Assembly: GCA_964388115.1 (NCBI GenBank)
Contig: CAYLYK010000006.1
Location: forward strand, 10,001 to 74,000
Origin: an uncultured Hyphomicrobiales bacterium
Lineage (GTDB): Bacteria > Pseudomonadota > Alphaproteobacteria > Reyranellales > JAQSWP01
Reading direction: 5' to 3'
DNA: 64,000 nt
The notes under the pieces were generated by a model. It made no database searches and was not told where the DNA came from. It saw only the letters and a list, made by a program, of their open reading frames with translations. Shown piece after piece: positions 3,485 to 49,379 of this stretch (positions within the stretch are counted from its first letter, which is position 1; each line of letters begins with the position of its first letter). The position numbers and the translations under genes are program-made.

Positions 3485-3868
3485 ATGCGACGGCTGATTT
3501 CCTCCGGTTCGGATTTCGAAAAGGTCGCGGGCTACTCGCGGGCGGTTGTCGACGGCGACATGATCTTCGTCGCCGGCACCACCGGCTTTGACTATGACCG
3601 CATGACCATCGTCGATGACCCCATCGAGCAGACGCATCAATGCTTTCGCAACATCGCCAAGGCCCTGGCAGAGGCTGGATCGAGTCTCGATGATGCAGTG
3701 CGCGCGACTTACTACCTGAGCGATGCCGCCTTGTTCGAGAAAGTCGCCCCGATATTTGGCCAGTATTTCGCCAAGGCGCGGCCGGCGGCGACGGCGCTGG
3801 TTTGCCAGCTGGTCGATCCGCGCATGAAAATCGAGATCGAAGTTACCGCCCGCAAAAGACAGGGATAG
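3485..3868 (+). CDS. RidA/YjgF/endoribonuclease L-PSP family protein
   Basis: 127 aa with a YjgF-like pattern (YSRAVVDGDMIFVAGTTG...RPAATALVCQLVDPRMKIEIEVTA). Starts 3 nt after the thiolase stop. Confidence 0.85.
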   Translation: MRRLISSGSDFEKVAGYSRAVVDGDMIFVAGTTGFDYDRMTIVDDPIEQTHQCFRNIAKALAEAGSSLDDAVRATYYLSDAALFEKVAPIFGQYFAKARPAATALVCQLVDPRMKIEIEVTARKRQG

Positions 3869-5702: not shown

Positions 5703-6656
5703 TTACTCGGCCGTCAGGCGGCGGAAGATTGCCAGATCGACGTTCGAGCCGGTATGGACCAGGGCCACCCGCTTGCCGGCCATACGTTCCCGCTCCTTGA
5801 TCAATGCCGCCAATGGCGCCGCCGCGGCAGGCTCGGCGAGGTTATGCGTATCGGTGTAGTAATGACGCATGGCCATGGCGATCTCGTCTTCCTCCACCTC
5901 GACAATGCGCGCCGCGCCACCGCAGATGATCTCGACCGCCTGCGGGTCGGGGACGCGGACCGCCAGGCCGTCGGCAACCGTATCGGCGCTGTTGGTGGCG
6001 ATCGGATTGCCGGCGGCGAATGAGTGGGCATAGCAGGGGGCCCGCGCCGCTACGACGCCGATGACTTCAGTGCGTGGGGACATTAGATCGCGCGCGGCGA
6101 TGGTGGCGCAGATGCCGCTGCCCAGCCCGATCGGCACATAGACAGCGTCGAGTTCTGCATGGGCGTCGAACATTTCCAGCCCATAGCTGGCGACGCCATC
6201 CACCAGATCGCGATGGAACGATGGCACACGGGAAAGACCGTCGCGTCGCGCGATTTCCTGCGCCTGCTCGGTGGCGGCCTGAAAATCATGGCCATGGACG
6301 ACCAGTTCGGCTCCCAGGGCTGCCATGGCGGCATTCTTTTCCGTCGAGTTGCCCTCAGGAACGACAATCACGGCCCGCAGGCCATTGCGCGAGGCGGCAA
6401 AGGCCATGCTCTGGCCGTGATTGCCGCGCGTTGCCGAAACGATGCCCAGTATATCAGGTCGATCCGCTTTCAGCCGCGCCAGATAGTTCAACCCGCCGCG
6501 CACCTTGAAAGCGCCCAGCGGAGTGTGATTCTCGTGCTTGACCCAGGTTTCGACGCCGGTGCGCTTGCACAACAACGGCCAGCGATGCAGCGGTGTCGGC
6601 GGCATCACGCGATGGATATCTCGCGCGATGCCGCGCAGGTATTCCAGCCGGGGCAC
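5703..6656 (-). CDS. PLP-dependent threonine/serine dehydratase family enzyme
   Basis: 317 aa with a GTG start. PLP-lysine motif GAFKVRG, then SATRGNHGQS and IGLGSGICA, typical of the Trp-synthase-beta fold II dehydratases. Confidence 0.85.
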   Translation of the reverse strand: MPRLEYLRGIARDIHRVMPPTPLHRWPLLCKRTGVETWVKHENHTPLGAFKVRGGLNYLARLKADRPDILGIVSATRGNHGQSMAFAASRNGLRAVIVVPEGNSTEKNAAMAALGAELVVHGHDFQAATEQAQEIARRDGLSRVPSFHRDLVDGVASYGLEMFDAHAELDAVYVPIGLGSGICATIAARDLMSPRTEVIGVVAARAPCYAHSFAAGNPIATNSADTVADGLAVRVPDPQAVEIICGGAARIVEVEEDEIAMAMRHYYTDTHNLAEPAAAAPLAALIKERERMAGKRVALVHTGSNVDLAIFRRLTAE

Positions 6657-7531: not shown

Positions 7532-8290
7532 CTAGTCACTATCCGGATAGCACTCGTAGCAGGGCTCGTAGCCGCCATCGGAATATCCGCTGGCCTTGCC
7601 GCGCAAGATGCTGCGCAGCTTGCGGACGCGGTCCTGCTCAAAGAATTCCGGGACCGTGGCTCCGGTCTTGGACGGATCGAGCAGCGGCGCCAAAAGCGCG
7701 ATCTGCCAGGCAGCGGCCTTGCTGTAGATCTCCGGCTGGCCACCGGGACGAATCACCAGCACCTGACCCGGTCGGTTGACGTTGAAGTTGCCGAACAACG
7801 TGGCCGCGACGAAGCTGCCTTCGCCGTTCCAGAAGAACGCTGTGCCGTCGGGCAGCAGGCCGATCAGAATGATCGTTCCGCGAACGCCGATCGTCGCCGC
7901 CGGCGTCTTGATTTCGTAGGCCTGGCTGGGCAGGCTGCCGGAAATGAATCGGAACACGCCCTTGGTGGCGTTCAGCGACACCGTGGAACTGCCCTGCGGG
8001 TTATAGACGAACTGGTCGAGCTTGACCTCCGAGTCTGGACCAATGGTCAGGCTGGTCTCGTCGCGGAACAGCAGCTGGCCCTTGCTCTCGCTGCCGGTGC
8101 GGATCAACTCGTTCTGGAACACTCGGTCGCCGGTCTTCTTCGTCGTCGTCTGCGGTCCCACCGTGCCTTCGACCTTGTTTACGACCGTAGCCGCAACGCC
8201 GATATCGGCAGTCTGCGTCTGGGCCGACAATCCCGTGGCCAGCGCCGATACGGCGACAGCGAGGGTGGTGGCGATGATGATCTTGCGCAT
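7532..8290 (-). CDS. Secreted FecR-domain protein (paralogue A)
   Basis: 252 aa. Signal peptide MRKIIIATTLAVAVSALATGLSA/Q. FecR-like core GVFRFISGSLPSQAYEIKTPAATIGVRGTI. The ATG overlaps the upstream stop (TAATG). Confidence 0.85.
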   Translation of the reverse strand: MRKIIIATTLAVAVSALATGLSAQTQTADIGVAATVVNKVEGTVGPQTTTKKTGDRVFQNELIRTGSESKGQLLFRDETSLTIGPDSEVKLDQFVYNPQGSSTVSLNATKGVFRFISGSLPSQAYEIKTPAATIGVRGTIILIGLLPDGTAFFWNGEGSFVAATLFGNFNVNRPGQVLVIRPGGQPEIYSKAAAWQIALLAPLLDPSKTGATVPEFFEQDRVRKLRSILRGKASGYSDGGYEPCYECYPDSD

Positions 8291-44972: not shown

Positions 44973-45440
44973 TCAGGCGACCTCGAACACCGCGTCAACC
45001 TCGACCGCCACGTTGAAGGGCAGGGCGTTGGTGCCGACGGCGAAGCGGGCATGGCGGCCGGCATCGCCGAAGACCGCGACGAACAGGTCGGATGCGCCGT
45101 TGATTACCTTGGGCTGATCGCCGAAGCCCGATTCGCAATTCACAAAGCCGCCGACCTTGACGCAGCGGCGGACGCGATCGAGATCGCCGCCGAGGGCAAG
45201 CTTGAGCTGGGCGATGATGTTGAGGGCGCAGAGGCGAGCGGCCTGCTGGCCCTGCTCGATTGTAAGTTCGACGCCCACCTTACCGAGATATTTGAGTTCC
45301 CCCTGCAGCACCGGGACCTGACCCGACACGAAGGCGAGATTGCCGGCAATCACTACGGGTACGTAGTTGGCGGCCGGCACACTGGCCGCTGGCAGGGCAA
45401 TTTTTAGCTCGGTAAGGCGAGCGTCGATACGACCGGTCAT
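44973..45440 (-). CDS. RidA/YjgF family protein
   Basis: 155 aa (YVPVVIAGNLAFVSGQVP...ARFAVGTNALPFNVAVEVDAVFEV). Paralogue of the gene downstream. Confidence 0.87.
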   Translation of the reverse strand: MTGRIDARLTELKIALPAASVPAANYVPVVIAGNLAFVSGQVPVLQGELKYLGKVGVELTIEQGQQAARLCALNIIAQLKLALGGDLDRVRRCVKVGGFVNCESGFGDQPKVINGASDLFVAVFGDAGRHARFAVGTNALPFNVAVEVDAVFEVA

Positions 45441-45444
45441 AAGT

Positions 45445-45483
45445 CTGTGCCTCCCACAGTACGAGACGATGTGGGAGGCACAG
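45445..45483 (-). promoter_or_regulatory. 14-bp perfect hairpin sequestering the SD of the RidA gene
   Basis: Minus-strand RNA reads CUGUGCCUCCCACA-(11 nt)-UGUGGGAGGCACAG, then ACUU and the AUG. The 3' arm contains the only SD (GGGAGG) and the 5' arm the anti-SD CCUCCC. Confidence 0.5.
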
Positions 45484-45500
45484 TCTGACAGGTTTTACGC

Positions 45501-45524
45501 GGGAGCAAGAATTAACTTGCCCCC
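45501..45524 (-). other. 9-bp hairpin, strand-specific (G-U wobble only on the minus-strand RNA)
   Basis: Minus-strand RNA reads GGGGGCAAG-UUAAUU-CUUGCUCCC. The equivalent plus-strand fold would have an A-C mismatch. It begins 7 nt after the small-ORF stop. Confidence 0.4.
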
Positions 45525-45530
45525 AGCGGA

Positions 45531-45599
45531 TTACATCTTCTTCTTCTTAGCGGCCTTCTTGGTGGCTTTCTTCTTAGCCGCCTTTTTCTTAGCTGCCAT
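45531..45599 (-). CDS. Unannotated 22-codon Lys/Ala-rich small ORF (MAAKKKAAKKKATKKAAKKKKM)
   Basis: ATG at 45599-45597, preceded by GAGAGGAGAGAGATC (AGGAG SD, about 8-nt spacing). Stop TAA at 45533-45531. Below the 60-aa cutoff of the ORF track. No homology evidence is available to me. Confidence 0.45.
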   Translation of the reverse strand: MAAKKKAAKKKATKKAAKKKKM

Positions 45600-45683
45600 G
45601 ATCTCTCTCCTCTCAAGTGACGTTGTAGGACCGGTCCGCTCCGATCCCGGGTTTGGGAACAAAGGTAATCACCTCTACGCTTA

Positions 45684-49379
<3,696 letters not shown>

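Follow-up and report, generated by a model that had tools for sequence, protein, structure and literature searches.

In the window, i.e., the whole 64 kb stretch of DNA from an uncultured alphaproteobacterium that was analyzed here, the spacer between nrdJ and the first of two ridA genes (RidA1) harbors a small open reading frame (ORF) which encodes a peptide composed almost entirely of lysine and alanine. Judged from its sequence and from that of its relatives, this small ORF is very probably a real coding gene under selection. The preferred overall reading, to which a probability of about 0.6 is assigned, is that the small ORF is a real gene which belongs to a stand-alone class of Lys/Ala ORFs, that the peptide is selected and that it would act as a polycation that binds polyanions. 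The earlier, first-pass annotation of this DNA had offered two readings, a genuine tiny polycationic protein or a leader peptide through whose translation the structured spacer and the RidA operon would be controlled. The former gains support from the retained frame, start codon, Shine-Dalgarno (SD) sequence and stop codon, from substitutions that are silent only, from in-frame indels and from the stand-alone ORFs in other phyla. The latter is not supported, because the predicted hairpin that hides the RidA1 SD sequence is not coupled to the position of a ribosome on the ORF, a related locus carries the ORF without RidA and the neighboring genes vary.

The small ORF and its conservation

The codons of the small ORF, read from 45599 to 45531, are ATG GCA GCT AAG AAA AAG GCG GCT AAG AAG AAA GCC ACC AAG AAG GCC GCT AAG AAG AAG AAG ATG TAA (coordinates of the features are collected in Table 1). 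The product consists of 12 Lys, 7 Ala, 1 Thr and 2 Met residues, in agreement with the minus-strand ATG to TAA reading of the first-pass annotation (12 Lys and 7 Ala of 22), and its net charge is about +12. The strong SD sequence that had been noticed ahead of the ATG is also found, with AGGAG 7 nt upstream; the sequence GAGAGGAGAGAGATC (45614 to 45600) directly adjoins the start codon on its 5′ side. The distances given earlier hold as well, i.e., 84 nt from the nrdJ stop codon (at 45684-45686) to the ATG and 90 nt from the small-ORF stop codon to the RidA1 ATG (at 45440), and Pfam identifies the neighbors as those that had been named: a class II ribonucleotide reductase, two YjgF/RidA genes, a PQ-loop/SemiSWEET gene and a FemAB_like (DUF482) gene. 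Among ORFs of 12-70 codons, the small ORF is the only one in the 64 kb window that is Lys-rich (at least 35% Lys). The probability of finding at least 12 Lys codons in 21 by chance was estimated here, from the base composition of the window, to be about 1e-16 per position.

Table 1. Features of the nrdJ-ridA region in window coordinates
Feature	Position	Strand	Description
nrdJ	45684..49379	-	Class II B12-dependent ribonucleotide reductase, 1231 aa (Pfam); upstream neighbor, conserved
Small hairpin, GGGATCGG-AGCGGA-CCGGTCCT	45627..45648	-	Between nrdJ stop codon and SD; no T-run after
SD region, GAGAGGAGAGAG	45603..45614	-	AGGAG core at 45607-45611, 7 nt 5′ of ATG
Small ORF	45531..45599	-	22 codons + TAA; encodes MAAKKKAAKKKATKKAAKKKKM
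Hairpin 1, GGGGGCAAG-TTAATT-CTTGCTCCC	45501..45524	-	6 nt past small-ORF stop codon; no T-run
Linker, AAACCTGTCAGA	45484..45495	-	Invariant in alignment; predicted pairing with RidA1 start region TATGACCGG
Hairpin 2, CTGTGCCTCCCACA-11 nt-TGTGGGAGGCACAG	45445..45483	-	3′ arm holds RidA1 SD GGGAGG (45450-45455)
RidA1	44973..45440	-	YjgF/RidA family, 155 aa (Pfam); downstream neighbor in this clade only

Mechanically, the frame of the small ORF opens at a TTG codon at 45662, 21 codons upstream of the ATG, which would give a version of 43 codons. This TTG start, 63 nt 5′ of the ATG and with an SD-like AGAGGTGAT, was rejected because the extension is not kept in orthologues, and the ATG is therefore taken as the start codon. 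On the opposite strand, the mirror ORF at 45367-45687, which the first-pass annotation had set aside as an artefact, is indeed one: its open length of 106 codons becomes 84, 84, 128, 86 and 37 codons in orthologues, with changes of frame, and it exists because the reverse complement of GCN and AAG codons contains no stop codons. Public gene calls in the nrdJ-ridA spacer choose spurious ORFs and miss the small ORF; the gene called in L205 (2820-2972, minus strand) is the antisense mirror frame of 50 residues, and a 35-residue ORF called in L001 (575-682, plus strand) overlaps the 3′ end of nrdJ.

A terminator scan of 45300-45800 identified none on the minus strand. The small hairpin between nrdJ and the SD sequence appears in the consensus fold of six orthologues, where its pairs are partly kept and one pair is changed on both sides in two sequences; because no T-run follows it, there is no obvious terminator between nrdJ and the small ORF, and for this reason the two are most likely co-transcribed. 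The small ORF would then be translated from its own strong SD sequence.

Conservation was assessed using the loci of RidA1 homologues at 95, 94, 83, 81, 79 and 75% identity, which form a graded series. The homologue at 95% identity is labelled as a Reyranellaceae MAG, so that the window probably derives from this family, and the relatives with orthologous spacers are probably Reyranellaceae as well. All of the compared loci display the order nrdJ, a spacer of 215-245 nt and ridA, and the records' own annotation of the orthologous loci calls no coding-strand gene in the spacer. Three sequences (L001-L003), being at 100% identity with the window, offer no variation to use.

Four of the orthologues (L204, L205, L206 and L207) encode the exact 22-residue peptide and differ from the window by silent codon changes only (up to five). 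In L206, where RidA1 is 83% identical to that of the window at the protein level and 76% at the DNA level, the small ORF displays five silent sense-codon changes and a change from TAA to TAG, with no amino-acid changes and no gaps, and the upstream spacer is identical at 69 of 88 positions, with gaps of 4 nt in total. About 18% of the single-base changes in the small ORF are silent, which by our own calculation yields P of about 2e-4 for five of five changes being silent. Two other orthologues (L208 and L212) encode a 19-residue version, MAKKAAKKKAKKAAKKKKI, which reflects a net in-frame loss of 9 nt and is found behind the same GAGAGGAGAGA; this SD sequence is unchanged in six of six orthologous spacers. 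Unlike these in-frame deletions, indels in the spacer that flanks the small ORF are not multiples of three. The non-Lys positions, i.e., Ala, Thr12 and Met22, are likewise conserved. The first-pass annotation had proposed that orthologous spacers be inspected for conservation of the frame, for synonymous versus non-synonymous change and for the phase of indels, and in each of these respects the outcome is that of a coding sequence, with the ATG, SD sequence and stop codon kept. The pattern indicates that the small ORF is under purifying selection, in an orthologue set with dN = 0 that is small and closely related.

In the two loci at 75% identity (L210 and L211) the small ORF is missing and nrdJ ends in an ordinary terminator.

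Lys/Ala ORFs in other lineages

The 80 alphaproteobacterial nrdJ loci listed were scanned for small Lys/Ala ORFs. Such ORFs are found downstream of nrdJ and on its strand in L083, where the product is MAAKKAAKKKAAKKATKKKAAKKKT, in L006, where it is MAAKKAAKKPAKKAAKKPAKKAAKKPAKKKAAKKK, and in L031, where a 44-residue variant begins 45 nt past the nrdJ stop codon; elsewhere in the approximately 880 kb of alphaproteobacterial loci listed, none was found besides those after nrdJ. About 76 of the 80 listed loci harbor no such ORF at this position, and because it is absent from these as well as from the RidA1 relatives L210 and L211, the small ORF is dispensable. Three further nrdJ-linked cases (L132, L168 and L122) were obtained among the matches listed from the metagenome pattern scan described below. 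Thus, nrdJ lies 5′ of the small ORF in the window, in L132, L006, L083, L122, L168 and L031, and in the L204-L212 series, and this shared position argues for common descent within the Alphaproteobacteria.

Among the matches listed, L132 is the closest nrdJ relative that carries the ORF (NrdJ 70%, FemAB_like 67%). Here, nrdJ is followed by 82 nt, the ORF for MAAKKKAAKKKAAKKKKQ, several hairpins, a clear terminator and the FemAB_like gene, and RidA and SemiSWEET genes are missing, which means that the small ORF travels with nrdJ and not with RidA. In L083, L006, L122 and L132 the unit closes with an intrinsic terminator of its own. The arrangement in L083 and L006 is composed of an nrdJ terminator, a spacer of about 550 nt with shared blocks, AGGAGA and the ORF, and is closed by a conserved hairpin that is rich in GC and has a T-run; the gene that follows the small ORF in L006 is convergent (a YkuD gene is found among the neighbors in other lineages).

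One of the blocks found in Hyphomicrobiales, GATGTGGTnGGCATATTGCCGAATCACrCAAAC, is located about 130-160 nt 5′ of the small ORF in L083 (~8150-8185), L006 (~8055-8090) and L122 (~3615-3655), and a second block, TGTGAGGCTTACCTGCGTT, is shared by L083 and L006 nearer to the ATG. A role as promoter, operator or 5′ UTR element is conceivable for both blocks. An ORF for another small basic product, of about 44 residues and different in sequence, is also seen 3′ of nrdJ, in L122 (3196-3330), where it has its own terminator, and in L030 (5552-5686), with the common motif S-V-A-(A/G)-S-D-L-A-Q. The Lys-rich matches in L030 and L007 were rejected as tails of longer, different ORFs.

For a wider search, metagenome contigs were screened with a degenerate DNA pattern that encodes MAAKK(K)AAKK. 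Because the pattern fixed the first 9-10 residues, the sampled class is incomplete and biased to that N-terminus, and counts refer to the matches listed. At least 121 complete pattern matches were obtained, and 75 of those listed are ORFs of at most 45 codons in which Lys and Ala continue up to the stop codon. A strong SD sequence (at 3-12 nt) precedes 52 of these 75; when every ATG of these loci is counted, the share is 4.5%. The strictest stand-alone criteria, i.e., a strong SD sequence and the absence of in-frame starts more than 8 codons upstream, are passed by 38 listed ORFs, which are mostly 13-23 codons long, with 92% K+A (Met1 counted) and contig GC contents of 0.33-0.73. With L001, L006 and L083 included, a somewhat larger set (78 tiny ORFs) has an overall composition of 54% K and 33% A and uses TAA (48), TAG (26) and TGA (4) as stop codons; a terminator-like hairpin follows 53 of these 78, among the matches listed, as compared to 69 of 390 random segments. 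Identical class peptides are encoded by four to five different DNAs that differ at silent sites only, and beyond the codons fixed by the pattern, the differences at codon positions 1, 2 and 3 number 125, 120 and 271, respectively.

The small ORF of the window has the features seen in this class, i.e., a length within 13-45 codons, a MAAKK start, a K+A content of at least about 85%, a stop codon straight after a Lys run, a strong SD sequence within 3-12 nt and a coding-type substitution pattern. Unlike 53 of the 78 class members, it has no intrinsic terminator of its own (hairpin 1 is not followed by a T-run). The remaining listed matches are Lys/Ala-rich N-terminal extensions of longer proteins, which by eye are HU-like, SWIB-like or H1-like, and a few low-GC matches are tails of slightly longer ORFs. 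As far as the matches reveal, tiny Lys/Ala ORFs form a widespread, unannotated class that includes Candidatus Dormibacterota, within which common descent and convergence between phyla are inseparable for peptides of such low complexity.

The genes next to these ORFs vary by lineage: nrdJ in Alphaproteobacteria, secA at a distance of 64-284 nt downstream in a low-GC group, a RecA-like gene and an IMS-family (ImuB-like) gene in a high-GC group, and a methyltransferase gene in a fourth group. The linkage to nrdJ, imuA/imuB and secA provides no consistent functional clue, and no linkage of the listed class members to ribosomal genes was found. In the low-GC loci L086, L095, L108, L117, L141 and L172 an ORF of 28-45 residues that is rich in Lys, Ala, Val and Thr and has no SD sequence precedes secA by 64-284 nt and shares its strand, a layout that recalls secM-secA, but the peptide is polycationic.

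The high-GC group is Candidatus Dormibacterota, where the ORF is part of a more elaborate unit. This unit begins with an A-tract, a near-consensus promoter (cATTGACg-N17-18-gGTATCAa) and a conserved leader of 130-250 nt, which are followed by the SD sequence AAGGAGGT, an ORF of 21 codons and a terminator; in some cases the unit is present twice, in tandem. The presence of a dedicated promoter and a structured leader suggests regulated, possibly autoregulated, expression. Promoter-leader units are seen in L194 (5933-6235), twice in L177 (2109-2411 and 2659-2961), in L187, L110, L135, L179, L162, L170 and L180, and in others. The leader contains the invariant blocks GGCGATGCTGCTCGTGGTTGCC, ACAGAGG and TCGGGTCC, and a helix, GGACCCG/CGGGTCC, which closes a variable domain and in which the changes found in L180 and in copy two of L177 apparently compensate each other. 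The leader belongs to no Rfam family, and RNAalifold yielded almost no consensus for it, with large indels. The Rfam model L20_leader scored 34 and 32 bits on Dormibacterota loci, relative to a gathering score of 58.7, and was rejected because these sub-threshold matches, which span the terminator as well as the 3′ end of the ORF, rest on features that hairpins and terminators have in general.

The motif CTTCTT is found within 40 nt past the stop codon in 16 of the 78 tiny ORFs, compared to 1.8% of random 40-mers, and forms a small hairpin with AAGAAG Lys codons whose loop contains the stop codon. The motif, seen in L194 (6284-6320), L177, L110, L187, L090, L119, L153, L170, L083, L141 and L203, is for the most part specific to the Dormibacterota lineage and is absent from the window. 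In L194, a Cheo-type LexA box (GAACATCTGTTC) at about 6505-6530 precedes a RecA-like (imuA-like) gene beside the tiny-ORF unit, and the promoter of the tiny ORF itself has no LexA box.

In viral contigs (L213-L332), the matches are mainly Lys-rich C-terminal tails of a larger phage protein and not stand-alone ORFs, an outcome that prompted the strict count of the metagenome set given above. In low-GC viral contigs (e.g., L220, L230, L241 and L268) the pattern mostly marks the tail ...PYTKKGK-MAAKKAAKKKGMKVKNKY of a conserved protein, and a few viral contigs carry tiny ORFs, e.g., MKKGMKKMAAKKMAAKKKKK.

The structured spacer and rival explanations

Folding calculations (z = -3.8) indicate that the sequence from the small ORF to RidA1 is structured. 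Hairpin 1 is kept in six orthologues, with both-sided changes at two pairs. Hairpin 2 has, in the same number of orthologues, an invariant core of 11 bp, a loop that varies in sequence and length, and one compensatory change from C-G to U-A which preserves the SD sequence (GGGAGG to AGGAGG); as a dispersed repeat within the window it was not found. In the minimum free-energy (MFE) structures, the invariant linker ACCTGTCAGA pairs with TATGACCGG and extends hairpin 2 over the AUG, such that a conserved helix (45432-45495, minus strand) is predicted to lock the translation start of RidA1. This helix, for which Rfam holds no match, may be a thermometer or may be controlled by a ligand or a protein.

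With such a structure downstream of a Lys-rich ORF, the rival that survives best, even if it is unlikely, is that translation of the ORF senses Lys-tRNA supply or ribosome flux and controls the RidA-RidA-SemiSWEET-FemAB_like genes, either by changing the fold of hairpins 1 and 2 or through ribosomes that terminate and then re-initiate. Every copy of the ORF in this clade precedes two conserved hairpins, the second of which buries the SD sequence and, via the linker, the AUG of RidA1. The ORF and hairpin 2 also co-occur, since L210 and L211 have neither, and 55% of the codons (12/22) specify Lys, the enrichment expected of a leader peptide. A ribosome that resides at the small-ORF stop codon would melt hairpin 1 in a constrained fold. 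However, the RidA1 SD sequence stays paired wherever the ribosome is modelled: whether it sits on codon 10, codon 21 or the stop codon, or covers the entire ORF, the probability of the SD sequence being unpaired is 1e-4, no alternative pairing appears and hairpin 2, which starts 47 nt past the small-ORF stop codon and thus beyond the reach of a terminating ribosome, is intact. Furthermore, the stretch that separates the ORF from RidA1 contains no T-run terminator, none of the downstream genes is connected with lysine, and the residues Ala, Thr12 and Met22 are conserved as well as the lysines. The small ORF is also independent of the genes downstream: in L132 it follows nrdJ, RidA genes are missing and a terminator separates it from the gene downstream; in Hyphomicrobiales the units are complete in themselves and are followed by a convergent gene, as in L006; and across the class the neighbors differ by lineage (convergent YkuD, secA, RecA-like/IMS-family) and most units end in terminators.

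The leader-peptide attenuators trpL, hisL and pheL offer a comparison. Like these, and like systems controlled by sequestration of an SD sequence, the locus presents a short ORF in which one amino acid predominates and, 3′ of it, stable hairpins, and the SD sequence of the downstream gene, RidA1, is sequestered. Unlike attenuators of this type, the small ORF has neither an antiterminator or anti-sequestor pairing nor a terminator T-run, the genes 3′ of it are unrelated to lysine, and ORFs of its type are monocistronic elsewhere. Because hairpin 1 is not followed by a T-run, read-through from the small ORF into RidA1 is possible.

A second rival, which has a still smaller chance of being correct, assumes that the ORF is translated but that the peptide is irrelevant, i.e., that translation shields the spacer from Rho-dependent termination or nucleases, or loads ribosomes, and that Lys and Ala are a by-product of a purine-rich, unstructured sequence. 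The strong SD sequence, the location between two co-oriented genes with no terminator and the poor folding of GCN/AAG sequences fit this assumption. It does not account for the retention of the exact peptide with silent changes only, for peptides of the same type being encoded in monocistronic units that have their own promoter and terminator and no downstream gene to protect, or for a composition and length that are very uniform across GC contents of 0.33-0.73.

That the small ORF is not a gene at all, being either a chance ORF in a purine-rich tract made by slippage or a non-coding RNA or DNA element, is very improbable: low-complexity triplet repeats can grow by slippage, length variation in multiples of three is also expected from slippage of 3-nt or 6-nt units and no database entry exists, but the ATG, the SD spacing and the stop codon straight after the Lys run are kept in the orthologues and in the class, strong SD sequences are enriched over the background as described above, the third-position substitution pattern is that of coding DNA and Rfam finds no match.

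Possible function and known relatives in kind

The preferred reading is thus that the peptide itself is the product under selection. It would be an unstructured or helical polycation which binds polyanions of the cell (DNA, rRNA/ribosomes, other RNA), and it may serve as a free counter-ion or compaction factor, comparable to the Lys/Ala tails of histone H1, HU/Hlp and AlgP but provided in trans. Polyanion binding is regarded as the most likely activity because of the composition and because the same motif heads apparently nucleic-acid-binding proteins; it is the presence of this N-terminal pattern in HU-, SWIB- and H1-like proteins, assigned by eye, that ties the Lys/Ala composition to nucleic acids. 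That the peptide acts specifically by binding nucleic acids is, by this analogy, a tentative proposal.

Lys/Ala-rich H1-like proteins are found in a range of bacteria, e.g., AlgP in Pseudomonas, BpH1 in Bordetella, Hc1 in Chlamydia and HupB/Hlp in mycobacteria, the last with PAKKA repeats at the C-terminus. These domains or proteins comprise about 60-350 residues and are usually joined to a folded DNA-binding domain. The peptide resembles the tails of AlgP, BpH1, Hc1 and HupB in having AKKA/KKAA-type repeats and a strong positive charge, but it is a free-standing product of 22 residues with nothing else attached. A sequence relationship to H1-like or AlgP proteins was not detected as a match in Pfam or NCBIfam, where low complexity blinds HMM tools.

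A second group of relatives in kind is formed by the very small basic ribosomal proteins Thx, bS22, bL37 and bL36 and the eukaryotic eL41, which are Arg-rich and have specific conserved residues. The likeness lies in the size of 20-35 residues, the extreme basicity, the strong SD sequence and a history of missed annotation. The peptide differs from these proteins in that neither a family profile nor a PDB chain matches it, in that its gene is not linked to those of the ribosome and in its patchy distribution. By analogy with Thx, bS22, bL37 and eL41, a ribosomal role is possible.

Database searches are in line with the statement in the first-pass annotation that no equivalent has been described. 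No match to the peptide was found in Pfam or NCBIfam, and no similar chain among the PDB sequences, at E≤10; Rfam gave no match for the spacer of the window or for L083 and L006. None of five family peptides was present in an exact look-up in 15 billion proteins, and a protein search with a 42-residue relative gave no scored match, because composition filters remove such low-complexity matches. In kind, MAAKKKAAKKKATKKAAKKKKM is grouped here with bacterial Lys/Ala-rich basic proteins and small basic proteins, and it is assigned to no defined family. Tryptic or LysC proteomics would cut these peptides after every lysine. No description was found in full-text literature searches, including the GMSC catalogue, sORFdb and a Ribo-seq/proteogenomics study of S. 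meliloti. The latter study used LysC, and the GMSC predicted ORFs down to 30 nt, so that entries for such peptides may exist there unremarked.

From the above discussion, the nrdJ-ridA spacer emerges as a gene together with a separate, conserved structure that would lock the ribosome-binding site of RidA1, rather than as a leader-peptide attenuator. At somewhat less than even odds, proteins of 13-23 residues made of Lys and Ala only constitute a cross-phylum, highly expressed and undescribed class of free polycations that act like histone tails or protamines on the nucleoid or the ribosome. If this proposal is correct, the class would have escaped gene callers on account of its length, HMM tools on account of its low complexity and tryptic or LysC proteomics on account of cleavage at every Lys, i.e., through a systematic blind spot that is common to gene finders, profile searches and tryptic proteomics. 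If the peptides are made at the levels that their signals suggest, several phyla would carry an abundant polycation that is absent from annotations, proteomes and models of the charge balance of the nucleoid and the ribosome.
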